From positions 4,785 to 68,784 of the forward strand of contig JANWZB010000001.1 of assembly GCA_025055035.1 (NCBI GenBank): a stretch of DNA of 64,000 nt, given 5' to 3'. Below the pieces are notes generated by a model. It saw nothing but the letters and a program-made list of their open reading frames with translations, searched no databases and was not told where the DNA came from. Below are positions 10,133-63,862 of the stretch, piece by piece. Position numbers and translations under genes: made by a program. Position 1 is the first letter of the stretch, and every line of letters starts with the position of its first letter. Source of the DNA: Candidatus Kapaibacterium sp. GTDB taxonomy: Bacteria; Bacteroidota; Ignavibacteria; Kapaibacteriales; UBA4661.

Positions 10133-10336
10133 ACACCCTCGCACCGAGCAATGAGACAATACCACTGCATAGCAGAAATATACAAATTCATCTCTTCAAA
10201 ATTCTCTGAAAAGCGCCATGAGTACAGATTTTTGACGGAATGTCTACAGCAATAGCAATTTGCCAGATTATTCGATAAGGTGTATTTTTGTAGCCTACAG
10301 GTTGTGTCGTCTGCTATATGTTAAAGGGAGCAATCG

Positions 10337-15885: not shown

Positions 15886-16254
15886 ATGGCAAAGGCCACT
15901 GTTCTGATTATAGAAGATGACAAAACTATCCGCACAGGGCTGACAAGGCTTATGGAAGCCGAAGGCTACACTCCACTTTTCGCAGAAAATGGGGTAGAAG
16001 GAGTGAAGCTTGCTTTAGAGCACAAGCCTGATTTAATTATCTGCGATATTGCAATGCCAGAGATGAATGGATATGAAGTCCTTGCAAAAATTAAGCAAAG
16101 CCCAAGTCTTGCAGCAAAACCATTTTTCTTCCTTTCAGCTAAAATCACAAAAGAAGACGAAGCAAAAGGCTTAGCTGCCGGAGCAACAGGATACCTTAAA
16201 AAGCCTATGTGGCCAGAAGATATTCTGAAAGTTGTTAAGCAGCATCTTCGATAG
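15886..16254 (+). CDS. single-domain response regulator (CheY-like receiver)
   Basis: VLIIEDD...DLIICDIAMPEMNG...LSAK...GATGYLKKP. Confidence 0.85.
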   Translation: MAKATVLIIEDDKTIRTGLTRLMEAEGYTPLFAENGVEGVKLALEHKPDLIICDIAMPEMNGYEVLAKIKQSPSLAAKPFFFLSAKITKEDEAKGLAAGATGYLKKPMWPEDILKVVKQHLR

Positions 16255-39672: not shown

Positions 39673-40557
39673 TTAGGCTTGTTGTGTCAGAAGCCGTTCA
39701 ATCATCGTCTTTAGTCCTTCAACTTTCCTCAGAATAGGGCGCAATGTTTGAGGGTTTTGATGCTTGAGCATCGTTTGAAGCTCACTAATATATCGGTTTG
39801 CTTTTTCTATCACAGCAGTGTCTTTCTTTTTCGCTATTTGTATAGCGTTTTTTGAGGAAACATTTTTTAGTGCTGTTTTGTTCCCAAATCCCTCTTCCTG
39901 CTGCAGCTTTTGCTGTAGTTCTTTGCGATATTTTGCCAACTGCTTTTGCACTGCCGAGACGTTTTGTCCTGTGTCCTGAGCGATTTTTTGAGCAGTAAGG
40001 CGTTGCACAGAAGTGCTTTCAGAAAGTAAAACGGAAGATTCCGTTTTACTTAAACTGCTTGTATCGTGCGCTGATTTTTTCGACCATTTCAATCCTCCAC
40101 CACGCGTTTCTTGGCGAATCAAGACGTCGAAATCTGGGTAGAGTTTCTTGTACAAACTGATCCACTCTGCTGTAGAAAATTGTCGGCGGTATAGATTATC
40201 CTTGATGATAAATTCGCGTTCTGCTGCTTCTGTGAGCGTATCGAGGACATACTGCACAGGCACAGACTGCAATCCTAGCTCCAATGCAACCTGCAAGCGG
40301 TTGTGCCCAGCAAGCAACACATCATCTTTCTTTGCCAGCAATGGAACAATAATCCCACGCTCTCGTATATCGTCCCGCAGCTTACTAAAATAATCTTCGC
40401 TTTCCTCTCTGAAAAAATGCCTATTCAGAGGATTTATCTTCAGCTGCTGAGGAGCAATATACTGCACGTCCGACAGCCGCACACCTTGAAGGTCAGCTCG
40501 TTTTGCTTGCACCCACGCAAGAGGGTTATTGTGCAGCTTAGGCTTCTTGGGATTCAT
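39673..40557 (-). CDS. parB: ParB-like partition protein (ParB/Srx nuclease-fold N-domain, HTH, K/Q-rich C-terminus)
   Basis: ParB N-domain IIVPLLAKKDDVLLAGHNRLQVALELGL, with GHNRLQ in place of the canonical GERRxRA CTP-binding motif. Putative HTH LTAQKIAQDTGQNVSAVQ. Directly downstream of parA. Confidence 0.7.
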   Translation of the reverse strand: MNPKKPKLHNNPLAWVQAKRADLQGVRLSDVQYIAPQQLKINPLNRHFFREESEDYFSKLRDDIRERGIIVPLLAKKDDVLLAGHNRLQVALELGLQSVPVQYVLDTLTEAAEREFIIKDNLYRRQFSTAEWISLYKKLYPDFDVLIRQETRGGGLKWSKKSAHDTSSLSKTESSVLLSESTSVQRLTAQKIAQDTGQNVSAVQKQLAKYRKELQQKLQQEEGFGNKTALKNVSSKNAIQIAKKKDTAVIEKANRYISELQTMLKHQNPQTLRPILRKVEGLKTMIERLLTQQA

Positions 40558-40592: not shown

Positions 40593-41348
40593 CTAGAGTA
40601 TCCGTTGGACAATTGTTTGTGCAATCTCGCTATATTGTTCAGCTGCTTTGCTTGTAGGCTTATACTCAAAAATGCTTCTTCCTGCAGAAGCAGCTTCGGC
40701 GAGAGCAATAACTTCGGAAATATGCGTCGGAAATAACTCATGAGGGAACTGAGTTTCGAGTGCTTGCAGCGCTTCGCAGTGCATACCCTTCCTACGGTCG
40801 AACATTGTAGCAATCACTCCAGAAACGGCAAGCTTTGGATTTGTGCGTTTTTGCACAATACCAATGATTTCATACAGCTTTGCGAGACCTTGTAATGCAA
40901 AAAACTCCGTTTGCACAACAATACACACATCGGTCGAAGCAGTAAATGCATTAACTGTTAATAAGCCTAGGCTTGGTGGTGTATCTATAAGAATAGCATC
41001 ATACCCTGATACATGCTCGAGCGCCTCTCTCAGGAGAAATTCTCTTCCTGTGACGCTTTGCAACTCTGCTTCACTATTTGTTACATCGAGCGACGACGGC
41101 ACCAAATGCAGCATTGGGGAAAGCTGTGTCGTGGCCTCAGCTATTGATGCCGTAGCCCGAAGCACTTCGTATATCGTATTTTCTGGTCGTTCATATACAC
41201 CAAAATGCGCAGTAAGATTCGTCTGTGGATCGGTGTCAACGAGCAGGGTGCGCTTATTATAATGATGAGCAAGAGCATATCCAACATTTGCGACAGTCGT
41301 TGTCTTGCCAACTCCTCCTTTGTGATTTGCAAAGGTGATAATTTTCAT
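40593..41348 (-). CDS. parA: ParA/Soj-family partition ATPase
   Basis: Deviant Walker A KGGVGKTTT and DTDPQ. Confidence 0.88.
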   Translation of the reverse strand: MKIITFANHKGGVGKTTTVANVGYALAHHYNKRTLLVDTDPQTNLTAHFGVYERPENTIYEVLRATASIAEATTQLSPMLHLVPSSLDVTNSEAELQSVTGREFLLREALEHVSGYDAILIDTPPSLGLLTVNAFTASTDVCIVVQTEFFALQGLAKLYEIIGIVQKRTNPKLAVSGVIATMFDRRKGMHCEALQALETQFPHELFPTHISEVIALAEAASAGRSIFEYKPTSKAAEQYSEIAQTIVQRIL

Positions 41349-41482
41349 GCACAAAACACTTTATGAAACAATTTTATGTAGTGCGCAAATTACAAAAAAT
41401 CTTGCGAAGCATTGGCATATCTTAGCTTCGCCATCATAGAAAATTTTGTTTGAACTAGTTTTTCCTCCTATCTTCGCTGTGC

Positions 41483-48705: not shown

Positions 48706-49767
48706 CTAGGTGCAAAAGAGCAGAAGTTCTGCACTAAAGCCCGGACCGAGAGCTATCATCATACCAAGCTCGTGAGGTGCAGGGGCAGACCGCATCAATT
48801 CCTGTAACGCAAAAAGCACAGAAACGCTCGACATATTGCCATAGTTCTGCAACACGTGGTATGCTGTGCAGAGATCTTGTTTAGTAAGTTTCAAGCTGTC
48901 TTGGTACGCTTGTAGTACTTTTGCCCCTCCAGCATGAAGAACAAAATGGCGGATTTCTTCTGTACAGATACCCCACGCTGCACAAGCTTCTGCAACTATA
49001 CCGGGAAGATGCTCCGTAATGAGTGTAGGAATATCACGCGCAAAGCGCACCTTGAGACCTGTCTCAATAATGTCCCAGCCCATGATATCCTCAGAGTCAT
49101 CAAATATGTAGCTGTACGATGCAAGGATACGCATTCCTAGTTCCTTGTCTTCTTGTGGCTTCTTTAACACAAGAGCAGCTGCACCGTCAGCAAACAAACT
49201 CGACGCAATAATGTTGGATTTCGAAATATCGTTGCGCTGAAACGTTAGGCTGCATAATTCAACAGCAGTACATAAGCCGTATGAGCCATCCGGCATTGCC
49301 GATAGAAGCTCTGCAGCTCTAGCTAATCCAGCTACTCCACCAGCACAGCCTAGACCCCACACCGGTACTCGCTTGACTGTTCGAGGCAAGCATAGTGCTT
49401 GTATCAGCTTAGCATCCAGACTCGGTGTGGCAATGCCTGTTGTTGATACTGCCACAACCATGCTAATATCCTCGCGTTGTATACCAGCATTCTGTATTGC
49501 GCTATTCGAAGCGTTAACAAGGAGCTTTATGGCAGTTTCCACAAAAAGATTGCTAGATTCTACAAAGCTTCGCTGCTGTTCAAACCAAGACAGCGGCTGC
49601 GAAAAGTACCGGCTTGTAATCTGTGTATTCTCAAATACAGGCATAAGCCGCTGCAAGCCTTGATACTCGCCTGAAAAGAGCCTGTATACAAGCTCCCTAA
49701 CATCGTGCTGCGAGACTTTATACGGAGGAAGAGCAGTGGCGATACTCTGTACAAGAATAGGAATCAT
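48706..49767 (-). CDS. type III polyketide synthase (chalcone/stilbene synthase superfamily, BpsA/RppA-like)
   Basis: Catalytic Cys in GLGCAGGVAGL, His in HAGGAKVL, Asn in GNMSSVSV, and a C-terminal GPGFS motif. Confidence 0.88.
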   Translation of the reverse strand: MIPILVQSIATALPPYKVSQHDVRELVYRLFSGEYQGLQRLMPVFENTQITSRYFSQPLSWFEQQRSFVESSNLFVETAIKLLVNASNSAIQNAGIQREDISMVVAVSTTGIATPSLDAKLIQALCLPRTVKRVPVWGLGCAGGVAGLARAAELLSAMPDGSYGLCTAVELCSLTFQRNDISKSNIIASSLFADGAAALVLKKPQEDKELGMRILASYSYIFDDSEDIMGWDIIETGLKVRFARDIPTLITEHLPGIVAEACAAWGICTEEIRHFVLHAGGAKVLQAYQDSLKLTKQDLCTAYHVLQNYGNMSSVSVLFALQELMRSAPAPHELGMMIALGPGFSAELLLFCT

Positions 49768-49799
49768 ATGCGCACGCTCACAACAGCCCTACGATAGCA

Positions 49800-50600
49800 C
49801 TATACATCATTTTCTGGAATTTGGCAAGTGTTACGAAAGGCAAGCTGCGAGACTGTTTTGCGTTGATTGCTCGTCCAATCAATGCGCGGGCGTTCGCGCT
49901 GCTCTGGGAGATAACCAAGACGATATATCGCCATAAGCTCTAAATCATCTGGAACGCAAAGCAACATTTTCAGTTCCTCCCATGCCTCAGGAATTTCCAT
50001 CGGTGTAGAAATAAATTGCATGCCCATACCCAGCTCACAGGTTGTTAGCCAGATATTTTCTATCGCCATTCCCAACGATAAAATACAGTACAACGCAGAG
50101 AGCTCTCCGGGGATGTATTCGTCCTTCTTCAGCAGTGCAGCCAACAGCAGAGGGCTAGCAGCTACAAGCTTTGTATTATCTGCCCCTAGTATCTTCGGTA
50201 CTCCCACACTCCGCATAATGCTCAATGCTGTGTCAGTAAACATATGCTTTATGAATGGACGCAGAGCAGGAGGAAGTTGGTCTATGAAAATGCCATCGCG
50301 CCGTTCTTCCATTTCTTGATGAGTAAATCGGAAGTACTTCTTGTAGCGAGCAAAGAACTTCCCTTCGTCGATAAGCTGTGTCATTGTGCGACCAGCAATA
50401 TCGGAGATACGGAAGCGAACTGCCTCGTCGTCAATCAGCACAAAACGCCACGGCTGAGAGTTAAAGTGACTTGGAGCACGGCTTGCTGCTTCAATAAGCA
50501 AGTGCTGATGCTCACGTGACACAGGGTCGGGCTTGAAGTACCCGTTTGTTGTGCGGCGTGTGCGAATAGCATCGAGAAGCTCCATACCATCCATTGGCAA
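49800..50600 (-). CDS. nitroreductase-superfamily flavoprotein
   Basis: [18 protein letters not shown] signature. 266 aa, larger than classical NfsB. First gene of the PKS cluster. Confidence 0.75.
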
Positions 50601-50716: not shown

Positions 50717-53272
50717 TTATGAGTACTGTGCTGCAACAACGGACTGCTTTGCTTTGCGTGCATCCGTAAACCGATTTGTTGTGTTAATAAGGCGCATTGC
50801 CAGAGTAAAGATGAGTTTTTTGGCAATGGTAGGATTATTGTGCACCAGTTCGTCGATAGTGCAGTCGTAGTGTGTAATAACAGAATCAGTTTTCGCGATA
50901 ATTGTCGCTGTGCGAGCTTCATTGGTAATTTCGCTCATTTCGCCGAAGATTGTCTCAGGGACACTAAATTCAGTAATTTTGACACCCTCCTTAAATACTT
51001 CCACAACGCCTGAATGCATGATAAAGAATCCCCGTCCCTTTTCTCCTTCCTTCATAATGATATCACCTTTCTTCGCATGGATGCGTTCTTCGCGGTACTG
51101 CCGTGCTGCCGAGGTAAGCAGCTCTGTCTTCTGCATCGAAGACGCTTGGCCTGAAAGCGTAGCTATACTCTTGTATTCATCGGGTACACGAGCAACATCT
51201 TCCAAAGCTGCAGAACGGTCTAACCGAAACCGTGCAACGAGCTTATTGAGTTGTTCTGTGATAGAAGCAAGGTGATTGATAGTTTGTGCAACGCGCTCAG
51301 TCTCTTGGGCAGATTGCGAGGCAGTCGAGGCAATATTTTCTACGCTTGTCAAGATATGAAGACTTGTCGCAGATTGCTCTTCTGTTGCCGAAGCGATTTG
51401 GCTAATGCGGTCAAGTACAGACTGCGAACTTTCGATAATCTCTCGGAGCGCTACCCCTGCCGAATCAGCAAGAGCAATGCCTTCTCTCACACGGTTGCTA
51501 CTAGCATACATTAGTGATGTCGCACTTTCAATATCCTTAAGGATTTGGTCAAGCATTGCGCTAATTTGCTTTGTTGCTGTTGATGTTTGCTCGGCAAGGC
51601 GTGCAATTTCATCAGCAACAACAGCAAACCCGCGCCCTTGTTCGCCAGCTCGTGCAGCTTCGATAGCAGCATTCAGTGCTAGAAGGTTCGTGCGTTTCGC
51701 AATAGCCTCGATAGTTTGAATAATCTTGCCTATATCTTTGCTCGATGTCCCAAGATTTTCGATGTTGATAGCAGAGCTTTTGACTACATCAGCGAGCGAG
51801 CGAATGTTTTCAACGGCTTGTGCCACTACAAAACCGCCTTCAGCAGCCACTTTGCTATTGTCAGCAGCAAATTTGGTTGTCTCGCTAGCATTGCGTGCAC
51901 TGTGTGTAATTGCCTTGTTCATTTCTTCGAGTGCAGTGTTCACCTCATCAGATTGTACCCATTGCTTCTGTGCCCAGAATACTAATGCTTCTTTCGACTC
52001 ATTAATTTGCTTTGCAACGCGGCGGGTAAGCTCCACTGCCTCGATAACTTCTATCATCATTCTGCGGATATTGCCCACAACTTCATTAAATCCAGCATAT
52101 AAGCGCCCAATGTCATCAGAGCTAGAAACCTGCAGTTGTACGGTCAAGTCGCCCTGAGCAAGAGCTTGCATCTCATGCAAAATCGTCGATACACTCGTAT
52201 TCAAATATGCGCTCTGCGATTCAAGCTGATGCAACGTCTTATTGAGTTCTTCCTGTTGACGAAGCAAATTATTCTGCTGCGCAATGATCTTGGTATTGGA
52301 TTCGCGCAGCGTTGTTGCCATGCTATTGAATGCATGGGCAAGTGCCCCAATTTCGTCGTTGGAGCGTACGTGAACAATCTGTGTTTGTCCGCTTGCTAGC
52401 GCTTCTGTAGCATGTTTCAGCTCGAGCACAGGCCGCACAAGACTTCGCGCAAGGAAAAATGCTATGGGTAGCCCTGTCAGAAAGGCAAGAGCAATAACGC
52501 TGTACATCAGGCGTTCTGATGTTGCTGCCACGACACTTTTTTCCTCAATCATGTGTTTGCTTGTGCCGAGAGCATCCGACTCAATAGTGTAAAGCCTCAG
52601 TGATAGGGTATCAAGCCTTTTGAACACTGCTGAGAGTTTTTTGAATGTTGTGCGGTAATGGTCTATGAGCGATGCGGCACTTGCTTTTGTTGCAATAGGC
52701 AAAGATGATGTAGCCACACCTGCTTCGAGCACTGCTATGTCTTCATCAAATTCTTTAATATGCTTTTCCAGCTTGCGCATAATAAAGTTTTTCTCATCAC
52801 GGCGCACCTGAAGCAGCATAAGATTCAACTCGGTAAGTCGAATCTCTTCAAACAAATCCTCCAAATCGTGTGCACTTTTGCGGAATGCTCCTTCAATACC
52901 ACTATTTTCCGTTAAGCCACGCTCTTGCATTGTTTCAGCAAACATGTGCCATAGCTTTTGATACTGTTCAAGCACAGATTGCAGTGCTATTCGCTCGTGT
53001 TCTACAATCATCTCGGACAGCACAGCATTTCCTTGCTGCAAAAGAGTGTTATTCTGGTGTATGTAGCTTTCTTTACGTGTCGTCGTAAAATCAACGCGAT
53101 TGGAGCGTAGGTTCAGAATAGTATTCGCTAGTGTTTGAATCCTATTCAGTTCGTCCATAAGCCGCGCCTGCCTATATGCAAAGAATGCTACAATCGCCGT
53201 GAATGCACCCATTATACCGGCAAGACCAAAAATCTTCACAAATAGCGACACAGAGCGTATCTTGTCCAGCAT
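50717..53272 (-). CDS. methyl-accepting chemotaxis protein with two HAMP-like segments and a C-terminal cyclic-nucleotide-binding (CAP effector) domain
   Basis: Two TM helices flanking a helical sensor region. HAMP ([14 protein letters not shown]). MCP signalling hairpin ([34 protein letters not shown]). C-terminal cNMP-binding domain ([24 protein letters not shown]...FGEMS...RTATIIA). Confidence 0.85.
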
Positions 53273-53393
53273 AGCACACGTATTTGATACTGTGAATATA
53301 ATCTCCGCATTGCAACACAGGTGCGTTATTGTGCTGCATTACGTGCAACGTACAAGGTAAGATACAAAACCTTTGTTTTTCTTTTTGCATTTT

Positions 53394-54107
53394 TTAGCGT
53401 TTGTGCTGCTCGATAACATCACCTTGATGAATACGCACAATGCGTTGTAGCATCTGTGCAGTGTCGCTGCTATGTGTTGCCATGATTAGCGTTACTCCCC
53501 GCTCTTTGGCAAGCTGTACAAGAAGGTGCAGCACCGTTGTTCCAGTCTCTTCATCAAGATTACCTGTTGGCTCATCAGCAAGCACTATCATAGGGCGATG
53601 TACTAATGCGCGAACAATCGCAATGCGCTGTTGCTCTCCACCGGATAAGCGGTCAGGGAACGATGTGCGCCGTTCATACAGACCAACATACTGCAACAGT
53701 TCAAGAGCCTCTTGCGTGTGCGCTGCATCGACGAGACCATTCAGCTCCAAAGGAAGGAAGATATTCTCCTCTACTGTAAGCGTCGGAATGAGATGAAAAA
53801 ACTGAAAGACAAATCCAATATTCCGACGACGAAACATTGTGCGATCGTGCTCAGAAAGGCGATAGATGCTAGTGTTGTTGAGTACAACCGTTCCCGTATC
53901 GGGTGTATCTATACCCGACAGCATATTCAAAAGTGTTGATTTCCCCGAACCACTTTTCCCTACTAGAGCAACCGTCTCACCCTTCTGCACCTGCAGCGAA
54001 ATATTGCGCAGAACCTCCCGCTGAGAGTCTCCTTCCCGATACGATTTGCTAAGATTCTCAACGAGAAGAAAAGGGCATGGAATTGTTTCATGTATGTTAT
54101 GCAGCAT
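53394..54107 (-). CDS. ABC transporter ATP-binding protein (LolD/MacB/FtsE-like), no adjacent permease gene
   Basis: Walker A GKSGSGKST, signature LSGGEQQR, Walker B MIVLADEPTGNLD, H-loop. Confidence 0.85.
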   Translation of the reverse strand: MLHNIHETIPCPFLLVENLSKSYREGDSQREVLRNISLQVQKGETVALVGKSGSGKSTLLNMLSGIDTPDTGTVVLNNTSIYRLSEHDRTMFRRRNIGFVFQFFHLIPTLTVEENIFLPLELNGLVDAAHTQEALELLQYVGLYERRTSFPDRLSGGEQQRIAIVRALVHRPMIVLADEPTGNLDEETGTTVLHLLVQLAKERGVTLIMATHSSDTAQMLQRIVRIHQGDVIEQHKR

Positions 54108-54220
54108 ACTAGAAGAGTTTTGGAAGATTACGGAAACGTGCTAACTTGTTACTAGTTGTATCAGATAAAAAATTCAACGTAGCTGGGCACAGTTGTGCAC
54201 TACTACTTGATGGATGACGT

Positions 54221-54562
54221 ATGTACAAGCTTGAAATTTCAACGCACGAACATGCCGGTATTGGGATTGTCAGCCTAGTTGGAGAGATTGACGCTGCGAC
54301 AGCACCAATTCTTGAGATGGAGCTTATCCCTCTGGCACAACAGTACAACCGTCTTATTCTCGACCTATCTGCAGTACGGTCTATTTCGAGTATTGGATTG
54401 CGCAAGATTCTTATGCTGTATCGCACAATTAAAATCCACAATGGGCAAATCCTTCTTGCTGGTATGTCTGAATCTCTGCGAAATATTATGTGGGCATCGG
54501 GCTTTCTAAATTATTTCATCGTTGCAGAATCACTTGAGATGGGCATTGCTGCTTTTGAATAA
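54221..54562 (+). CDS. STAS-domain anti-sigma-factor antagonist (SpoIIAA-like)
   Basis: 113 aa with the STAS pattern of RsbV/SpoIIAA proteins: ...GEIDAATAP...LILDLSAVRSISSIGLR. Confidence 0.8.
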   Translation: MYKLEISTHEHAGIGIVSLVGEIDAATAPILEMELIPLAQQYNRLILDLSAVRSISSIGLRKILMLYRTIKIHNGQILLAGMSESLRNIMWASGFLNYFIVAESLEMGIAAFE

Positions 54563-54568
54563 ACGTGA

Positions 54569-55807
54569 TTGCGTGTCATGTCTTCATTGCATATATACCC
54601 TGCCGAGCGCGTACCACGCATTCTTGTTGTAGACGATATGCTCGAGAACCTTCAAGTACTGCGCGGACGGCTGCGCGTCAAAGGATATGAGCTTTACGAA
54701 GCTTCAAGTGGAAACGCAGCACTAGAATTACTTTATCACGCAAAGCACGACAATTCAACGCTACCAGACGTCATTCTCCTTGATGTTCAGATGCCTGACA
54801 TAGACGGCTTTGAGGTATGCCGACGCATCAAAGCAGATACTGAGCTCCGAGACATTCCTATCATTTTTCTAACAGCACGCGGGGATATGGACGATATCAT
54901 ACAAGGATTCGAGCTTGGTGCTGTTGATTATATTGTGAAACCTTTCCATGCAGCAGAACTACTCACACGCATCAAAACGCACATAGATCTTAAATTTTCA
55001 CAAGATGCCCTACGCCAGAGCAATGCACTTCTTACGCACCTCAACCACGAAAAAAGCGAGCTTATGAGCATTGTAGCACACGACCTCAAAAACCCTCTAG
55101 CAACAGTGCGCTGGCTTGTGGATATACTAAAAACCTCCTCGCTTTCTTCCGAGCAATACAGACAAACACTCGAAGCTATTTCGGCATCTGTAGAGGGCAT
55201 GGCACAGCTTGTTAGCAACTTGCTTGATGCGAACGCACTGGATGAACCATATCATTTCTCCAACACTCTCGAGTATGGCTATAGACACATATCCCCAGAA
55301 AAAGTTAATCTTGTGTTTATCGCAGCTGAGGTGCTCGGACGCTATGAGCACCATGCTCGCAAAAAGCAGATTACAACAACATTCCATAATACAGCAACTT
55401 CGGCAACAGTCTTTGTTAACTCCGAGATTTTGAAGCAAATCTTGGATAATCTGATTTCCAACGCCATCAAGTACACACCTTACGGTGGCACAGTGTCTAT
55501 TCTTGTTTATAATCCTTCGGAAAATCCTTCAGCTGTGCAAGTGTCAGTGCAGGATAGTGGTATCGGCATTCCATCCCACGAACAACACAGACTCTTTACA
55601 AAATTTGGTGTAACTTCCTCGAAACCTACAGGAGGAGAGCATTCAACGGGGCTAGGGCTTTATATTGTTAAAAAACTGAGCGAGGCAGCAAAGGGACGCG
55701 TTTCCTATAAACCTGCCATGCCACAAGGCTCGATATTTTCTGTTGAGTTTCCCGTGTTTGCGCCACAATCGCAGTATTCTTCCGACAATGACGATGATAC
55801 CACATGA
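54569..55807 (+). CDS. receiver-domain plus histidine-kinase hybrid protein (cytoplasmic)
   Basis: Receiver ILVVDDM...DVILLDVQMPDIDG...DYIVKPF. HisKA H-box SIVAHDLKNPL. HATPase N and G boxes (NAIKYTP, GLGLYIVKK). Confidence 0.85.
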   Translation: MRVMSSLHIYPAERVPRILVVDDMLENLQVLRGRLRVKGYELYEASSGNAALELLYHAKHDNSTLPDVILLDVQMPDIDGFEVCRRIKADTELRDIPIIFLTARGDMDDIIQGFELGAVDYIVKPFHAAELLTRIKTHIDLKFSQDALRQSNALLTHLNHEKSELMSIVAHDLKNPLATVRWLVDILKTSSLSSEQYRQTLEAISASVEGMAQLVSNLLDANALDEPYHFSNTLEYGYRHISPEKVNLVFIAAEVLGRYEHHARKKQITTTFHNTATSATVFVNSEILKQILDNLISNAIKYTPYGGTVSILVYNPSENPSAVQVSVQDSGIGIPSHEQHRLFTKFGVTSSKPTGGEHSTGLGLYIVKKLSEAAKGRVSYKPAMPQGSIFSVEFPVFAPQSQYSSDNDDDTT

Positions 55808-58113
55808 AGCATCTTGAGTGTTCTTCGAAAGAGCAGGAAAGACCAAAACGTCGCTTTACAATAAAGATGACGGCAGCAATACTTCTTGCTGCTGTGGCGC
55901 CGTCTTCGGTCGTTGGATATATTTGCCTTCAAGCCGCTCTTGCTGCTCACAAGCATGCAGCACGTGAATACTACGTTGCGGTTGCAGAACGCGTACAAGA
56001 CCATCTAGATCATCGGATTGACAATGCCTCAGCACTTCTTGCACGAACACGCGATATATTTAGCAACACCAGCATTACAGAAAGTTCTGCTGTAGAAATT
56101 GTCCGCGCATTGCTTGCCGAAAGTGACGAGGTTTCCGCTCTAGGCATATACGATGCAGCAGGACAGAATATCGACATACTCAGCAAGGGTGCGTCCCACA
56201 CACTGCCTGAACAGCTTTCCGAGCAGTATCTTCGCCAGCTTCAGTCTTATGCTAACTCTCAGCGCGTTATTGTCAGACCACCGCAAGCCTTGCGTGAAGG
56301 CTCTTCTGTTGGCATACCGCTGTGTGCTATATGGAGAGCTACGGACTCACATCAAGGGAAACAGCATGCCGGTACTCAAATTGTTAGTTATTTGATTGCA
56401 GTCCTCGACTATGAATATTTGTCGCAAGTAGTAGAACACATCTCTTCGCAAATGTTTTATGGCGCACGCAACCGCATTTGGCTTTGCGACTCTACACTGC
56501 ATGTATTCGCATCATCCGAGCGCGACCATGCTCGTACAAACATAAATATGCAGTCCTACGGACTGTTCCAACACACAGACATATCGAGTAGTGCGAGCTA
56601 CTGTGCTAGTACTATTCGCGAATACATCGGCAGCAATGATGTTCCTATGCTTGGCATTGCTCTTTTTGTCCCCACACTTCAGAGTATCATTGTAGTTGAG
56701 GAGCCACAAGCAACCATATATCGCTCGCTCGATGCGCTGCGTTCTACAGCATTGTTGTGGATAGCATGTGCTACGCTTCTATCAGGTGTTGCTTGTATCA
56801 TACTGGCGCAGCAATTTTCCAAGCCTATCCGTGTTCTTAGCAATGCTGCACATATGATTGCTCACCACAATTTTACTGTCGTTCTTCCTCGCTCTCGCAA
56901 CGATGAGTTCGGCTTGTTATACACGACTTTTAATACGATGGCAGCCGAACTCCGTACATATCATGCGCTCAATATTGCCCGTGTCATTGCCGAACGCAAT
57001 AAGCTTGAGGCAGTCGTTCGCGAAGCATACGATGGTATCATACTCCTCGACCCTTCCGGTACCGTTACTCTCATCAATCGCACCATACGCACATGGCTAG
57101 CACTACCCGATACAAGCTCTGAAGCAATTCACATCGACACTCTTGCAGAATCATCTCCTATTCTTATGCAGATTGCCGAAGCTTTCCACCGTCTTACCAT
57201 AAGCCCTAATGTAGTAGAGCACTGCGAATTATCGTTCACACCAACTAATGAGCTCCGAGAGCGCACATTGCGCGGTACTTTACTGAAGGTTATTCCGCAT
57301 GTTTCAGCTTCTGCGCTAATATCACATGAGCTATATCGTTCAGAACCTCCTGCAGAATACTCTCAGCCGCCACTTGAACCAATTGCCTACGTCCTTGTTC
57401 TCCGCGATGTCTCGCGCGACGTCGAAGCCGACAAGCTCAAGACCGAACTTGTAGCAGTAGTTGCGCACGAGCTACGCTCACCGCTTAATAGCATTATTGG
57501 TCTTGCTGAACTCATAGCAGACGGTATAGCAACCGAGCAAGAAATGATAGAATATGGACGTACTATTACCTCTCAAGGACGCAAGCTTGCAGGCATTATC
57601 AACAGAGTGCTTGATATTAGCCGTTTAGAGCTTGGGAAAACTGACATTCGTCGTGTTCCAGTGAACCTGTGCAATGTTATCCGTGCAGCTCTTACAACCA
57701 ACGCTCCTCTTGCCGCTCAAAAGTCTATACGCATAGAATGGAACTGCCCTGAGCCAGATGTAGCCACTGTACACGGCGACCCCGATTTACTTGGACAAGT
57801 CATGGTTAATCTTCTGAGCAATGCTATAAAATACTCGCCGCACGGCACATCGGTGCACGTCCATGTGCATCGCGAAGGCTCATCCATACGTGTTTCCGTT
57901 CGCGATGAAGGCTATGGTATCTCAGATTCATCGCAGCAAAAGCTGTTCACTAAGTTCTTCCGAGCAACTGACGACCAACGCATCAAGCGTGAATCTGGAA
58001 CAGGTCTCGGGTTAGCTTTTGTTAAACAGGTTGTTGAGCAGCACGGTGGCGAAGTAGGTGTTGACAGTCGTTTGAATGAGGGTTCGACGTTTTGGTTTCG
58101 GTTGCCTGTTTAG
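55804..58113 (+). CDS. membrane sensor histidine kinase (2 TM, HAMP, PAS-like, HisKA, HATPase)
   Basis: Start overlaps the previous stop (ATGA). TM helices at both ends of a periplasmic sensor region. H-box VAHELRSPL. HATPase motifs NAIKYSP and GTGLGLAFVK. Confidence 0.85.
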   Translation: MKHLECSSKEQERPKRRFTIKMTAAILLAAVAPSSVVGYICLQAALAAHKHAAREYYVAVAERVQDHLDHRIDNASALLARTRDIFSNTSITESSAVEIVRALLAESDEVSALGIYDAAGQNIDILSKGASHTLPEQLSEQYLRQLQSYANSQRVIVRPPQALREGSSVGIPLCAIWRATDSHQGKQHAGTQIVSYLIAVLDYEYLSQVVEHISSQMFYGARNRIWLCDSTLHVFASSERDHARTNINMQSYGLFQHTDISSSASYCASTIREYIGSNDVPMLGIALFVPTLQSIIVVEEPQATIYRSLDALRSTALLWIACATLLSGVACIILAQQFSKPIRVLSNAAHMIAHHNFTVVLPRSRNDEFGLLYTTFNTMAAELRTYHALNIARVIAERNKLEAVVREAYDGIILLDPSGTVTLINRTIRTWLALPDTSSEAIHIDTLAESSPILMQIAEAFHRLTISPNVVEHCELSFTPTNELRERTLRGTLLKVIPHVSASALISHELYRSEPPAEYSQPPLEPIAYVLVLRDVSRDVEADKLKTELVAVVAHELRSPLNSIIGLAELIADGIATEQEMIEYGRTITSQGRKLAGIINRVLDISRLELGKTDIRRVPVNLCNVIRAALTTNAPLAAQKSIRIEWNCPEPDVATVHGDPDLLGQVMVNLLSNAIKYSPHGTSVHVHVHREGSSIRVSVRDEGYGISDSSQQKLFTKFFRATDDQRIKRESGTGLGLAFVKQVVEQHGGEVGVDSRLNEGSTFWFRLPV

Positions 58114-58157
58114 GATGCGCGTATCTCATTGTTTCCTTCGTGCATATTCTTGCGCTT

Positions 58158-59669
58158 ATGATGAATAAGGAATACTGCTATTCTCGCATATATTACCACT
58201 TGTTGTCGATGCTTGCTGCACTTATCACAAGTATGCACCTGTCACTTTGGGCACAAGAAGAGTACAGCCTCGCACCCGGCAAGAAAATCATCATTACAGA
58301 CGCGACTTTTAAGAAGGGAAGCGCTGTTATAGAAGAGTCTCAGCGTCCTGCTTTTGCACGACTAGCGGAGTATCTTAAACAACGCGATCATTTAAATATC
58401 GAAATAGGAGGACACGCTGATAACACAGGCACAGAAGAACAAAACGTCAAGTTATCGCTCGAACGGGCTGAAGCTGTGCGAGAATATCTCATCCATAGCG
58501 GTATTGCCGCAAGCCGCATTCGTACTCGTGGTTATGGATCAACGTATCCTATCGCCGACAATGCTACTGAGGAAGGACGCACACGCAATAGAAGAGTTGA
58601 GATTATTGGTCTAACAGCATTCTCAGGAAAGCTCCTTGCTGGAGTTGACGGCACGGCGCTTGCTCCTGATGCACGTATTACTATGCTGAAGCCTGTGGTT
58701 CGTGTTATGCCTGCATGGGAGAACACATGGCACGAAGCTACCATCAATCAACCGCTCTACGAAGCTTTCAAAATCTCGACCGATGAAGGAGCAAGAGCAG
58801 ATATCACGTTTCGCAACAACAGCGTCCTGCACATACGCGATAATACTCTGGTTATGATATATGGCTTTTCCCCTCAGCAGCGCGGCTTGGTAAGTGATGA
58901 TATTGCCACAGTCCACGGACAAGGAACAAACGTTGAACTTACAAAAGGCGTCCTTACATTCAAACTTCGGGACATGCGCCAGTCCGACACATTCTCTGTA
59001 AAAACCCGTGTTTCCCAAATCGGCTTTAATACACATTCTAGTGACGCAGCAGCGAAAATCTACGTTGATAACCGCCAGCGCTCAATTATTTCCGTGCTCG
59101 AGGGTCAAGCATACGTCAAAGTTACAAACAACGACCCCAGAATAGGTCAAGTGTTACGTGTCTCCGAAGACTTTGGAATTATTGTTGGCGATAGCTTGTA
59201 CGCTCAAGAGAATGCATATCGGCTTCCTCCTATGCCCGTATTGCACGAGCCAATCGACCGCGTCGAGCTTACAGAAGGCTCTCAAAGTATTCGATTTGCA
59301 TGGGAGAGTAATGGGTATCCTGCTCGTCTCGAGGTAGCTACGAATGCTGACTTTAGCGAGATAGTGTACAATCAGGTTCGCCGCTCCCCGCAAGCGCATG
59401 TTATTCTTCCTGCAGGCAAGTACTTTGTGCGGCTTACCAGCATAGACAGCATTGGATTCGAGAGCAAGAGCCTGATTCGCGCTCTAGTTGTTGAGTATCC
59501 TCAGAGTGCTCGCATCACATCTCACCGCTTTCGATACCTCGAGCTCGGACTGTTTATTATCGGCACAGCAGCAGTGTGGGCTGGGATACTTATCAGTAAG
59601 ATAGTCCTTGTACGCATCGGCGTAGGGATGATACTTGCAGCTATCTTAATGCTTGCTTTTGCGTCGTAA
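58158..59669 (+). CDS. OmpA-domain plus FecR-like domain protein with C-terminal TM anchor
   Basis: Signal peptide. OmpA C-like domain (NIEIGGHADNTGTEEQNVKLSLERAEAVREYL...RNRRVEI). FecR-like segment (ITFRNNSVLHIRDNTLVMI...GVLTFKL). Two C-terminal hydrophobic helices. The ORF track starts at 58092, overlapping the kinase gene. Confidence 0.6.
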   Translation: MMNKEYCYSRIYYHLLSMLAALITSMHLSLWAQEEYSLAPGKKIIITDATFKKGSAVIEESQRPAFARLAEYLKQRDHLNIEIGGHADNTGTEEQNVKLSLERAEAVREYLIHSGIAASRIRTRGYGSTYPIADNATEEGRTRNRRVEIIGLTAFSGKLLAGVDGTALAPDARITMLKPVVRVMPAWENTWHEATINQPLYEAFKISTDEGARADITFRNNSVLHIRDNTLVMIYGFSPQQRGLVSDDIATVHGQGTNVELTKGVLTFKLRDMRQSDTFSVKTRVSQIGFNTHSSDAAAKIYVDNRQRSIISVLEGQAYVKVTNNDPRIGQVLRVSEDFGIIVGDSLYAQENAYRLPPMPVLHEPIDRVELTEGSQSIRFAWESNGYPARLEVATNADFSEIVYNQVRRSPQAHVILPAGKYFVRLTSIDSIGFESKSLIRALVVEYPQSARITSHRFRYLELGLFIIGTAAVWAGILISKIVLVRIGVGMILAAILMLAFAS

Positions 59670-62235: not shown

Positions 62236-63231
62236 CTAAGGTTTATTTGCTTGAATAAGCTTATCAAGCAGAATATTACGGTTCTGACACAGGAGCATGT
62301 AAATTGTATTATTGTATTCTCCTGCTTGCTCATACGTGTTGTGCTGACGAATAAAGTCTGGCAGCATATCGTAAGCTTCTTTCATAATTGCCTGCTGCTG
62401 CTCTAGCCCTAACTGTGAGAAGACAGTGTCGTAATCTTCAGGTGTGGTGGGTGTTGTACTCAAGTCTATTGGCTCCACTGCATTTCTAAACGGAAGAGAA
62501 AGTTCCGTTTTTCGGTAAATACAAAACTTTATTCCATCGATCTTGCGTTGCACACGATGATAGCGCACTGCTACAAATAAGTCGGAGAGCTCGTTAATTT
62601 CATTCACTGCTTTTTTGATAACTTTTTCGTTGAAGCGAGAGAAGACAAGGTACTCATCCTCATCAACACCCATAAGCTCGCGAAATTCGCTAATGGAGAT
62701 TTGTGGGGTCTCGCCGTAGGAGCGCTCAAAATCAAAATAGTCAAGACATAGCTCGTACAGAGCAAGGGCGTGCTTCGACTGGAACTTGTTTTGTAGCGAC
62801 AGACTAATCCGAGCATACATGCGAGGGTTGCGCAAGCGCTCGCGCAGAAAGGGACTAAAAGCATATGTTAAAATGCCTTGCTTAATTACAGCACCTGCAA
62901 GTAATGGGAAAACACCCCACTCACTTTTGTCTTTCCGCAAAATATTCCACCGTACAGCTGTAGTAGAAAGCTTTTCCAGCGCTTCCTTGAGATACGCATC
63001 ATCGTTGCTTTGGTAGTCAAGCATTTCAACGAGATCGCGAACACGAATTTGGAAGCGGTCAGTATGAGCAAGGTCATCATACGCACGAGCAAGCAGAATA
63101 TTCCACGCTCGGCGCTGAAGTAAGGAGATGGTATTTGTAATCTGTACAGCAGAACTATGCTTAATGACTTCTTTCTTACGTTTAGAAAGCCGAATTGGTG
63201 CACTAGATAAGATCGGTGTTACCGCTTCCAT
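62236..63231 (-). CDS. plasmid-type replication initiator, Rep_3 (RepA/RepB) family
   Basis: Winged-helix pattern typical of iteron-binding Rep_3 proteins (NTISLLQRRAWNILLARAYD...MYARISLSLQNKFQSKHALALYELCLDYF...ISISEFRELMGVDEDEY...NEKVIKKAVNEINELSDL). Start trimmed to MEAVTP; the ORF track extends to 63378. The iteron array lies immediately 5' of the gene. Confidence 0.75.
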   Translation of the reverse strand: MEAVTPILSSAPIRLSKRKKEVIKHSSAVQITNTISLLQRRAWNILLARAYDDLAHTDRFQIRVRDLVEMLDYQSNDDAYLKEALEKLSTTAVRWNILRKDKSEWGVFPLLAGAVIKQGILTYAFSPFLRERLRNPRMYARISLSLQNKFQSKHALALYELCLDYFDFERSYGETPQISISEFRELMGVDEDEYLVFSRFNEKVIKKAVNEINELSDLFVAVRYHRVQRKIDGIKFCIYRKTELSLPFRNAVEPIDLSTTPTTPEDYDTVFSQLGLEQQQAIMKEAYDMLPDFIRQHNTYEQAGEYNNTIYMLLCQNRNILLDKLIQANKP

Positions 63232-63350
63232 AATACCATTAGCTTCTGAAAGATTACAACACACCACACAACTTGATCTACTGATAGCGTTGAAATCTAC
63301 ACAATCCCTTTGCGAGAGCAAAGCAAAATGATACAACACTTTCATAAAGT

Positions 63351-63535
63351 TTCCTGTAAACGGGGAGCTTACCAGCATGCTGGATGATGTCTGATGTTAT
63401 TTCGGAGACTGTTCACGCATCCTGTAAATGGGGATGCTCATCCAGAAAATATCCTGTAAATGGGGAGGTTTCAAACACTTCTTCTCGGCTATCCTGTAAA
63501 TGGGGAGGTTTCTATCCTGTAAATGGGGAGAGTTG
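63351..63535. repeat. iteron cluster A: one degenerate plus four spaced copies of the 22-bp iteron ATCCTGTAAATGGGGAG(A/G)(G/T)TTC
   Basis: Copies at 63351-63370 (degenerate, TTCCTGTAAACGGGGAGCTT), 63419-63440, 63451-63472, 63491-63512 and 63514-63535. Confidence 0.85.
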
Positions 63536-63541
63536 CAAAAG

Positions 63542-63566
63542 TTTTCCACAAATAGAGTGTGGATTA
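63542..63566. promoter_or_regulatory. two inverted DnaA-box-like sequences (TTTTCCACA and TGTGGATTA) followed by an AT-rich stretch
   Basis: Each matches the TTATNCACA consensus at 8 of 9 positions. They sit between the two iteron clusters, as in many iteron-plasmid origins. Confidence 0.45.
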
Positions 63567-63618
63567 TATCATACTGAGACGCTATGTGGGAGTATATATA
63601 CAAAATTTTCGCACAGTA

Positions 63619-63760
63619 CTCCTATAAATGGGGAGGTTTCTATCCTGTAAATGGGGAGAGTTCATCCTGTAAATGGGGAGAGTTCATCCTGTAAATGGGG
63701 AGAGTTCATCCTGTAAATGGGGAGAGTTCATCCTGTAAATGGGGAGAGTTCATCCTGTAA
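63619..63760. repeat. iteron cluster B: one variant copy plus five perfect head-to-tail 22-bp iterons (ATCCTGTAAATGGGGAGAGTTC) and a truncated sixth
   Basis: Copies at 63619-63640, 63642-63663, 63664-63685, 63686-63707, 63708-63729, 63730-63751, and a partial one at 63752-63760. Exact 22-bp periodicity (two helical turns). Confidence 0.9.
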
Positions 63761-63791
63761 TCTCAATATTTTCAATAACTTACAGGAATAT

Positions 63792-63827
63792 AAAACTCTT
63801 AAAACTTCTAAAACTTTTAAAACTCTT
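63792..63827. repeat. four tandem AT-rich 9-mers (AAAACTYYT), candidate DNA-unwinding element
   Basis: aaaactctt, aaaacttct, aaaactttt, aaaactctt, directly flanking the iteron array. Confidence 0.55.
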
Positions 63828-63830
63828 AAA

Positions 63831-63862
63831 ATAGAGCTAGTAATAAATAGAGCTAGTAATAA
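63831..63862. repeat. 2 x 16-bp direct repeat ATAGAGCTAGTAATAA
   Basis: Exact tandem duplication seen in the sequence. Confidence 0.6.

Follow-up and report, generated by a model that had tools for sequence, protein, structure and literature searches.

Comparison of gene neighbourhoods pointed to a composite origin of the segment 54221-59669 of the window, the 64,000-nt stretch of Candidatus Kapabacteria DNA that we analysed. Its four co-oriented genes had been taken in a first-pass annotation for one operon, either partner-switching-like or envelope-sensing, next to an orphan ABC ATPase gene. We consider it somewhat better than an even bet that they come from two units joined by rearrangement, and that the second unit would be an envelope-sensing phosphorelay. 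Unit A (50717-54562), with the genes for an MCP, an ABC ATPase and a STAS protein, is an independent conserved neighbourhood. Unit B (54569-59669) encodes a hybrid kinase, a membrane kinase and a protein with OmpA-like and FecR domains. The two units have separate histories, the last two genes of Unit B form a conserved pair, and the domain content of its proteins includes a FecR-containing region homologous to that of LysM-FecR proteins.

Unit A starts on the minus strand with an MCP that has two HAMP domains and, at its C-terminus, a cNMP-binding domain (50717..53272; Pfam MCPsignal 2e-41, HAMP, cNMP_binding 3e-14). This is followed by a LolD/MacB-type ABC ATPase, also on the minus strand and lacking a permease gene nearby (53394..54107; ABC_tran 4e-38), which is divergent from the plus-strand gene of a single-domain STAS protein, an anti-sigma-factor antagonist of the SpoIIAA/RsbV type (54221..54562; STAS 5e-17). 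The three genes of Unit B, all on the plus strand, encode a cytoplasmic REC-HisKA-HATPase hybrid kinase (54569..55807, with a probable start at ATG 54578; Response_reg 2e-28, HisKA 1e-12, HATPase_c 7e-24), a membrane sensor histidine kinase (55804..58113; HAMP 7e-12, HisKA 5e-15, HATPase_c 3e-29), and a protein composed of OmpA-like, FecR-fold and FN3-like domains with a C-terminal hydrophobic hairpin (58158..59669; OmpA 9e-26, FecR 7e-9), hereafter the OmpA-FecR protein. The five ORFs originally listed (the ATPase gene and the four plus-strand genes, the last as 58092-59669, its longest ORF) are real, and a Pfam scan of the five proteins backed all the domain calls made for them. The ATGA overlap between the two kinase genes was confirmed at 55804-55807. 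The reported spacing of 6 nt between the STAS and hybrid-kinase genes holds with the TTG start at 54569 but becomes 15 nt with the ATG at 54578. The reported overlap between the membrane-kinase and OmpA-FecR genes turned out to be a longest-ORF artefact: the kinase gene stops at TAG 58111-58113, and the family alignment places the start of the OmpA-FecR protein at ATG 58158, leaving a gap of 44 nt. NCBI annotates a still later start for this protein (478 aa). Scans for sigma-70 promoters (9 found versus 9.1 expected) and terminators (9 found versus 6.2 expected) were at shuffle background and uninformative on operon structure.

The STAS protein passed the NCBIfam model TIGR00377 (70.6 bits versus a cutoff of 53.45) and matched 4hyl (1e-15) and RsbV (6m36, 2e-7) in the PDB. 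It keeps the phospho-serine position (SISSIGL aligned with YMDSTGL), the serine matching the RsbV/SpoIIAA site. We found 12 orthologs (63-84% identity). In four other lineages the orthologs (63-81% identical) have an ABC ATPase or MCP gene on one side and GlgX on the other, GlgX following the STAS gene in L094-L103, and no kinase gene was found near them. MCP orthologs are present 5' of the STAS gene in L088, L090, L094-096, and L102, while in L097-099 the upstream MCP is reduced to a 75-aa remnant. The ATPase gave LolD as its best NCBIfam match (236 bits, under the cutoff of 307.75), its nearest families being LolD/YbbA/FtsE/MacB. Its orthologs (phmmer 2e-85 to 7e-93) are arranged head-to-head with the STAS gene in L097-L102, and the two genes adjoin in 4 of 7 STAS contexts. 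Among conserved divergent partners of the STAS gene, the ATPase is the commonest. It was rightly described as divergent and without a permease gene, but it is a conserved partner of the STAS gene rather than an unrelated neighbour.

Such a partnership recalls the complex of the STAS protein MlaB with MlaF, an established precedent in which a small STAS protein is conserved beside an ABC ATPase (PMC7367683). It is unlikely, though not negligibly so, that the STAS protein of Unit A likewise binds the divergent ATPase and tunes its activity, the ATPase working with a permease encoded elsewhere. The head-to-head arrangement with orthologous ATPases (the window, L097-099, L100/101, and L102) would fit, as would the fact that this ATPase is never found beside a permease gene, while a paralogous ATPase adjoins a MacB/FtsX permease in L100 and L104; the STAS protein is also weakly similar to MlaB (7ch8_K, E=0.003). 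Its scores against antagonists of the SpoIIAA/RsbV type are, however, far above its score against MlaB, and the protein persists in L088, L090, and L094-096, from which the ATPase gene is absent. The ATPase is of the LolD/MacB type, not the MlaF type, and the two genes are divergent, not co-operonic. MlaE and MlaD/MCE genes were not found in the window by Pfam, nor is there an MlaC gene as in the Mla system, and no FtsX/MacB permease was found among the 49 large ORFs of the window.

The kinase unit exists without the STAS gene in nine other loci (L001, L003, L004, L092, L093, L104, L106/107, and L109), and the STAS gene lies upstream of the kinases only in the window, L088, and L090. In two sister lineages (L001 and L107) the first gene of the unit encodes a REC-GerE regulator instead, and the order is GerE/RR-HK/HK/OmpA-FecR. 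The HK and STAS trees both gave the grouping (window,(L088,L090)), sister to lineages in which the arrangement is separate. The OmpA-FecR tree differs, placing the window outside a group formed by (L088,L090) and (L001,L089), so that the clade of the window, L088, and L090 is drawn from the HK and STAS trees only. The STAS protein of the window is 80% identical to that of L102, which has the GlgX context, and 80% identical to that of L090, which has the kinase context; since these two are equally similar to it, the STAS sequence is not altered by its context. The first-pass annotation would have been undermined by failing domain predictions or by a gene order found in no relative; the domains held, and L088 and L090 share the order STAS/RR-HK/HK/OmpA-FecR with the window, but from wider sampling it is clear that the four genes are not a single ancestral unit. 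A search for remnants of the GerE regulator or of GlgX in the window by tblastn gave receiver-domain similarity only, and no response regulator with an output domain was found beside the window kinases (tblastn in the window).

This distribution would follow from one rearrangement, in the common ancestor of the window, L088, and L090, that put the kinase unit directly behind the STAS gene. GlgX would have been lost at one edge of the new junction and the GerE regulator at the other. As a consequence of such a placement, the kinase genes probably share a transcript with the STAS gene today without being functionally wired to its product.

The alternative that the whole cluster forms one partner-switching-like circuit, in which the STAS protein controls or is controlled by the histidine kinases and these replace RsbW, PP2C, and the sigma factor, appears improbable to us. 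Partner-switching modules linked to two-component systems exist, HsbR-HsbA being an example, and the window shares with SpoIIAA/RsbV modules a single-domain STAS protein, with the conserved serine of an antagonist, encoded 6-15 nt upstream of a receiver-containing, kinase-type protein. The genomes of the window, L088, and L090 have diverged, yet in all three the STAS gene still adjoins the kinases, which may indicate a lineage-specific functional link, and in L088 and L090 it holds the place that the response regulator has in L001 and L107. This adjacency is, however, confined to one clade: elsewhere the STAS gene goes with GlgX in kinase-free surroundings and the kinase unit occurs without the STAS gene, starting with REC-GerE in two lineages, and the similarity of the STAS proteins to that of the window is, as indicated above, independent of context. 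About 65-140 nt separate the STAS gene from the next gene in L088 and L090. Both kinases carry ordinary HisKA H-boxes and do not have the RsbW-type architecture. As already stated in the first-pass annotation, no sigma factor, PP2C phosphatase, or RsbW-type serine kinase was found when all 49 large ORFs of the window were scanned with Pfam, the domains looked for including PP2C/SpoIIE and Sigma70; a sigma/anti-sigma target, as found in SpoIIAA/RsbV modules, is also missing.

The composite reading leaves Unit B to be considered by itself. Both kinases are catalytically canonical, with H, N, and G1 (and G2) boxes. The hybrid kinase, in which the H-, N-, and G1-boxes are present, has no TM segment, and its receiver was seen, on reading the sequence, to have the expected DD/D/T/K residues (VVDD...LLDVQMP...FLTA...VKP). 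Its orthologs lie within the module in L001, L088, L090, L092, L104, L106/107, and L109. Hydropathy of the membrane kinase indicated a first TM segment (22-46), a periplasmic region of ~265 aa, and a second TM segment (314-338), followed by HAMP, PAS-like, HisKA, and HATPase domains. Over its whole length, the sensor region can be aligned with that of the partner kinases of other loci. Its profile gave as best PDB match the dCache domain of Tlp3 (4xmq), a weak one (E=0.0017), and dCache_1 was also weakly matched in orthologs (L093 at 2.6e-6, under the gathering score, and L106). The periplasmic sensor may thus be dCache-like. A homolog search with the kinase sensor region returned one protein only, and an AF2 model of the sensor, made with two sequences only, was unusable (pLDDT 48). 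CHASE2 was rejected as the sensor type, as there was no Pfam CHASE2 match and the topology is that of two TM segments plus HAMP.

The OmpA-FecR protein matched Pfam FecR with 36.4 bits (cutoff 24). From ATG 58158 it is predicted, on the basis of the family alignment, to start with a signal peptide cleaved between WAQ and EE. The signal peptides of the family end with AQ before an E in the alignment, which fits the Q-rule of Bacteroidetes (PMC5837995). In the AF2 model of the protein (pLDDT 87.5), the OmpA-like domain has the peptidoglycan-binding fold, and the Asp and Arg residues that contact peptidoglycan are conserved (D88 in at least 90% of the sequences, R103 invariant). The FecR domain matches the fold of PupR and BDI_1681, and fold comparison also recognised an FN3 fold. 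The C-terminal membrane anchor proposed earlier was found as a hydrophobic hairpin of two helices (residues 460-503). The architecture had been called unusual, but the combination of OmpA and FecR domains is not rare: a search with the FecR-FN3 profile gave 5,775 representative proteins at E<=1e-3, including many with OmpA+FecR or LysM+FecR, and the FecR-FN3 module is homologous to that of the LysM+FecR proteins (E ~1e-30 to 1e-40). The same profile found nothing significant in a sequence search of the PDB. Scanning contigs with the full-length OmpA-FecR alignment picked up 80 unrelated OmpA loci (L008-L087) through the generic OmpA motif, and these were ignored.

We also considered that the OmpA-FecR protein might behave as FecR does, being signalled to by a TonB-dependent receptor in the outer membrane and relaying this to the kinase instead of an ECF sigma factor. 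This is improbable. The FecR fold is all that the protein has in common with FecA-FecR-FecI and PupB-PupR-PupI: it lacks an N-terminal cytoplasmic anti-sigma domain and is anchored at its C-terminus, there is no ECF sigma gene nearby, and the output of the window locus is a two-component phosphorelay. No TonB-dependent receptor gene, and no STN-bearing transducer, is adjacent in the window, L001, L088, L090, L104, L106, or L109; the adjacent receptors of L003 and L006 showed CarboxypepD_reg/Plug and no STN in the recorded Pfam matches.

What characterises Unit B across loci is the pairing of the kinase sensor with the OmpA-FecR protein. In 11 of 13 distinct contexts, a protein with the N-terminal sensor region of the window kinase is encoded next to an OmpA-FecR gene. 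Both gene orders occur, identity between the OmpA-FecR proteins ranges from 31 to 79%, and a REC-kinase hybrid usually accompanies the pair. The pairing recurs in two distant loci with another peptidoglycan-binding domain or another output: in L108, the gene of a LysM-FecR protein ends 2 nt before that of a HAMP-cyclase in which this sensor domain is found again (E=8e-51), and in L109, an OmpA-FecR-Ig protein of 698 aa precedes a HAMP-PAS-HK (E=2e-80 with the sensor profile), after which comes a REC-HK hybrid. Two family members (L006 and L091) have no kinase gene nearby, as chance adjacency of the kinase and OmpA-FecR genes would predict, but the neighbourhood data, with the sensor retained in both orders down to about 31% identity, effectively refute this explanation. 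Because the membrane kinase and the OmpA-FecR protein form a conserved pair, the envelope-sensing half of the original proposal is supported, and the data support reading Unit B as a conserved kinase module for envelope sensing, one that varies on a kind already known but uncharacterised.

The core of this module would be the membrane kinase, with its dCache-like, HAMP, and PAS domains, together with a dedicated periplasmic co-sensor. The latter, the OmpA-FecR-FN3 protein, would be exported via its cleavable signal peptide, would bind peptidoglycan through the OmpA-like domain, and would be held in the inner membrane by its C-terminal helical hairpin. Its FecR/FN3 part, residues ~172-446 counted from ATG 58158, would contact the periplasmic domain of the kinase, residues ~47-313, and thereby pass on the state of the cell wall or envelope, or the presence of a ligand. 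From the membrane kinase, a phosphoryl group would then pass to the receiver of the REC-HisKA-HATPase hybrid, which would serve as a second-tier kinase. The ancestral output was presumably the REC-GerE (LuxR-type) transcription regulator, lost from the locus in the lineage of the window.

Judged by sequence, the module is homologous to the LysM-FecR (COG4254) plus sensor-kinase operons of Burkholderia. Operons of a response regulator, a LysM-FecR protein, and a CHASE2-HK are known in Burkholderiales and P. aeruginosa, and disruption of the regulator abolishes biofilm formation; the 'BiofilmReg' operon of Burkholderia contaminans contains LysM-FecR (COG4254) and a CHASE2 sensor kinase (PMC5192318). 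Clusters of a CHASE2 cyclase and a FecR-domain protein occur in Campylobacterota (PMC9239204). The COG4254 operon and the window module both associate a secreted protein with peptidoglycan-binding and FecR domains with a membrane PAS-HisKA-HATPase kinase, the former having a response regulator beside them. They differ in the peptidoglycan-binding domain (LysM versus OmpA-like), in the sensor (CHASE2 versus a two-TM, dCache-like domain with HAMP), and in the regulator (CreB/OmpR-type versus ancestrally GerE/LuxR-type). The window module has an extra REC-HisKA-HATPase hybrid, its FecR protein, unlike that of the COG4254 operon, has a C-terminal membrane hairpin, and the module lacks the DUF4136 gene. 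There is also a likeness to YfiB-YfiR-YfiN (TpbB) of Pseudomonas, in which an OmpA/Pal-like peptidoglycan-binding protein takes part in the periplasmic control of an inner-membrane signalling enzyme that has HAMP and a sensor domain in the periplasm; YfiB (4zhv) was one of the structures that best matched the OmpA-like domain. Unlike the window protein, YfiB is an outer-membrane lipoprotein that sequesters a soluble repressor (YfiR) and has no FecR or FN3 domain, and the output of that system is a diguanylate cyclase.

For annotation, the locus is a caution that a compact cluster of four genes whose stops and starts overlap can result from a recent rearrangement; reading the STAS protein as part of the circuit would be wrong for most relatives. 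To our knowledge, the mechanism of the FecR fold is known only from TonB-dependent cell-surface signalling with ECF sigma factors. Here and in the LysM-FecR homologs, the fold is joined to a domain that binds peptidoglycan, and it is found together with a single family of sensor domains on kinases or cyclases. We tentatively propose that peptidoglycan-tethered FecR-FN3 proteins, whether OmpA- or LysM-headed, might be obligate co-receptors of one periplasmic sensor domain on kinases and cyclases; a smaller possibility, for the window clade, is that the STAS protein was recruited as an output after loss of GerE. Since the FecR-FN3 module, with its thousands of representatives, has been the subject of no mechanistic study that we found by searching the literature, a pairing that is defined and can be tested offers a useful way in. 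If true, the co-receptor reading would mean a widespread, uncharacterised way of reporting the state of the cell wall or envelope, in which the FecR fold operates without an ECF sigma factor.

ORF calling reproduced the five gene positions of the first-pass annotation, and a Pfam scan backed its domain calls for each protein. On the minus strand lies an ABC ATPase (53394-54107; ABC_tran, 4e-38), and on the plus strand a STAS protein (54221-54562; STAS, 5e-17), a hybrid kinase (54569-55807; Response_reg, HisKA and HATPase_c), a membrane kinase (55804-58113; HAMP, HisKA and HATPase_c) and an OmpA-FecR protein (58092-59669; OmpA, 9e-26; FecR, 7e-9, 36.4 bits for a cutoff of 24). The STAS protein exceeded the curated NCBIfam cutoff for anti-sigma-factor antagonists, and the NCBIfam families nearest to the ATPase were LolD, YbbA, FtsE and MacB. 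The ATGA overlap of the two kinase genes at 55804 was borne out. The reported 6-nt gap between the STAS and hybrid kinase genes requires a TTG start and becomes 15 nt with the ATG at 54578, while the supposed overlap of the membrane kinase and OmpA-FecR genes was a longest-ORF artefact: an alignment of 28 family sequences placed the OmpA-FecR start at ATG 58158, leaving a 44-nt gap and a signal peptide that ends in WAQ, before EE. In the public annotation this protein is 478 aa long, begins with the Met codon at 58233 and lacks its signal peptide; within 58092-58235, the alignment favoured 58158. Pfam detected no sigma factor, PP2C phosphatase, RsbW-type kinase or ABC permease among all 49 large ORFs of the window, in agreement with the claims that the anti-sigma kinase, phosphatase and sigma factor are absent and that the ATPase is an orphan. 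The initial observation was largely confirmed.

The proposal drawn from it was a partner-switching-like or envelope-sensing module wired through histidine kinases. We found 12 STAS orthologs (63-84% identity). In four other lineages, STAS was followed by a genuine GlgX (above the TIGR02100 cutoff). Before it, on the other strand, came an orthologous ABC ATPase (phmmer 2e-85 to 7e-93 against that of the window), the MCP-cNMP receptor, or both, and no kinase was nearby. The kinase unit occurred in two related loci, L001 (61% identity) and L107 (47%), in the order REC-GerE, REC-HK, HK and OmpA-FecR, with the same genes downstream as in the window (PaaA-like, HmuY, DUF1285 and Rep3). The order of kinases and OmpA-FecR was kept in these relatives; STAS stood directly 5' of the hybrid kinase only in the window, L088 and L090. 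Neither the GerE regulator nor GlgX was found in the window by tblastn. By neighbour joining, the kinase and STAS trees both grouped the window, L088 and L090 as sister to the lineages with separate units; in the OmpA-FecR tree, the window branched one node further out. The region has a two-unit history, most simply explained by one rearrangement in the ancestor of the window, L088 and L090, which joined MCP/ABC ATPase/STAS to hybrid kinase/membrane kinase/OmpA-FecR. The STAS proteins of L102 (GlgX context) and L090 (kinase context) were both 80% identical to that of the window, so no protein feature tracks the new neighbourhood. To judge from this comparison, the STAS gene is a passenger beside the kinase unit; its product retains the serine aligned with the RsbV/SpoIIAA phospho-acceptor and is probably a working antagonist with partners elsewhere. 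A partner-switching circuit is contradicted by the kinase-free STAS neighbourhoods of the four lineages and by the REC-GerE gene that opens the kinase unit in L001 and L107. The earlier interpretation was half right: this is an envelope-sensing kinase module.

The MCP-cNMP chemoreceptor (50717-53272, minus strand; two HAMP, an MCP signalling and a C-terminal cyclic-nucleotide-binding domain) is kept beside the STAS/ABC unit in several relatives, with only a 75-aa remnant in L097-099. A paralogous LolD/MacB-type ATPase (phmmer 4e-54 to that of the window) lies one small gene away from a MacB_PCD/FtsX permease in L100 (8325-12033) and L104 (1-1643); the STAS-linked ortholog never had a permease nearby. 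A pair of genes for a type III polyketide synthase and a nitroreductase (48706-50600, minus strand) is found again close to the kinase module of L104, and the nitroreductase gene near the STAS unit in L094/095, which indicates much reshuffling of the neighbourhood.

Further downstream is a Rep3-type replication initiator gene (62236-63378, minus strand; Rep3_N and Rep3_C), with an iteron origin of textbook form directly upstream (region 62236-63860). The core CATCCTGTAAATGGGGA is present in about 11 copies (63350-63745), with five perfect 22-bp tandem units at 63642-63760, followed by an AT-rich block with four 9-bp repeats (63791-63831) and a 16-nt repeat in two copies. Because the Rep3/DUF1285/HmuY/PaaA-like synteny is kept in L001, L088-L090 and L106, on contigs of up to 76 kb, the region appears to be a stable plasmid-type origin, belonging to a large replicon of the lineage. 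A ParA/MinD-type ATPase gene (40593-41354, minus strand) and an adjoining 294-aa ORF without Pfam match (39673-40557, minus strand) may be its partition pair. The cyclase receiver and the stand-alone receiver of the first-pass annotation are both present (7946-10165, minus strand; 15886-16254, plus strand). The receiver-adenylate/guanylate cyclase has 739 aa, including an N-terminal region of about 390 aa without assigned domain. Together with the cNMP-binding MCP, these genes hint at cyclic-nucleotide signalling; Pfam annotation of the window revealed no link between them and the kinase module.

An AlphaFold2 model of the OmpA-FecR protein, with the family alignment as input, was confident (mean pLDDT 87.5). 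It comprised an N-terminal signal helix, an OmpA-like domain (residues 44-152), a beta-rich domain (172-343), a beta-sandwich (361-446) and a C-terminal helical hairpin (460-502). Signal peptides across the family end in AQ before E, consistent with the Bacteroidetes Q-rule for signal peptidase I substrates (PMC5837995). By these features, the protein is periplasmic, with one end attached to the cell wall and the other anchored in the inner membrane.

Sequence reading found canonical H-, N- and G-boxes in both kinases and a complete receiver in the hybrid (acidic pocket, phospho-Asp, Thr and Lys); by these residues, kinases and receiver are all catalytically competent. The membrane kinase consists of TM1 (22-46), a periplasmic domain of about 265 aa, TM2 (314-338), HAMP, a PAS-like region and the kinase core. 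Its periplasmic domain had no match in the Pfam scan. Against the PDB, a profile built from eleven orthologous sensor regions matched the dCache domain of Campylobacter Tlp3 best (4xmq, E=0.0017), two orthologs gave sub-threshold dCache_1 matches, and a structure prediction from just two sequences was unusable (pLDDT 48). Given this limited evidence, we consider a dCache fold probable.

The envelope-sensing reading was borne out by the conserved pairing of sensor and OmpA-FecR. Through exact-protein look-ups and a metagenome scan, annotated with phmmer and Pfam, we gathered 13 distinct genomic contexts of the OmpA-FecR family (mutual identity 31-79%). A window-type N-terminal sensor region adjoined OmpA-FecR, up- or downstream, in 11 of them, the exceptions being L006 and L091, and a REC-HisKA-HATPase hybrid joined the pair in seven. 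An exhaustive search with a FecR-FN3-hairpin profile retrieved 5,775 representative proteins at E<=1e-3 (93 at E<=1e-30), the nearest classes outside the family being longer OmpA+FecR proteins and many LysM+FecR proteins. We inspected two such neighbourhoods. In L109, OmpA-FecR-Ig is followed by a HAMP-PAS-HK (E=2e-80 against the sensor profile) and then a REC-HK hybrid; in L108, LysM-FecR lies 2 nt upstream of a HAMP-adenylate/guanylate cyclase whose N-terminal region matched the profile at E=8e-51. The conserved association is therefore that of the FecR-FN3 module with one periplasmic sensor domain, whatever the peptidoglycan-binding head or cytoplasmic output. The distant relative L092 (935-5315), included in the 11, encodes between the REC-HK hybrid and OmpA-FecR a 534-aa protein with sensor, HAMP and PAS and no kinase core. 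Its truncation looks genuine, because the next gene is just 75 nt away; this suggests that signalling by the sensor may pass through the hybrid kinase.

Among described systems, the Burkholderia 'BiofilmReg' operon (response regulator, LysM-FecR periplasmic protein (COG4254), CHASE2-PAS-HK and DUF4136) comes closest; disruption of its regulator abolishes biofilm, and it is also found as a pair in P. aeruginosa (PMC5192318). In Campylobacterota, CHASE2 cyclases cluster with a FecR-domain envelope protein (PMC9239204). The window module follows this theme, with a FecR region homologous to the one in LysM-FecR proteins, but it has an OmpA-like head, a C-terminal hairpin, a non-CHASE2 (dCache-like) sensor with HAMP and an extra hybrid kinase, and the regulator of window-type modules is GerE-type. 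Our literature search found no mechanistic study of any member, and we rate the module as belonging to a known but uncharacterised kind.

In cell-surface signalling, FecR-type domains contact partner domains. By analogy, the FecR-FN3 region would contact the periplasmic domain of the membrane kinase. Being tied to both peptidoglycan and inner membrane, OmpA-FecR could signal the state of the cell wall to this kinase, or offer it a ligand, and the kinase would phosphorylate the hybrid's receiver; the phosphorylated receiver would then gate the second kinase, whose ancestral target may have been the GerE-type regulator. As a lead, the specific pairing of the FecR module with the sensor domain is the most useful.
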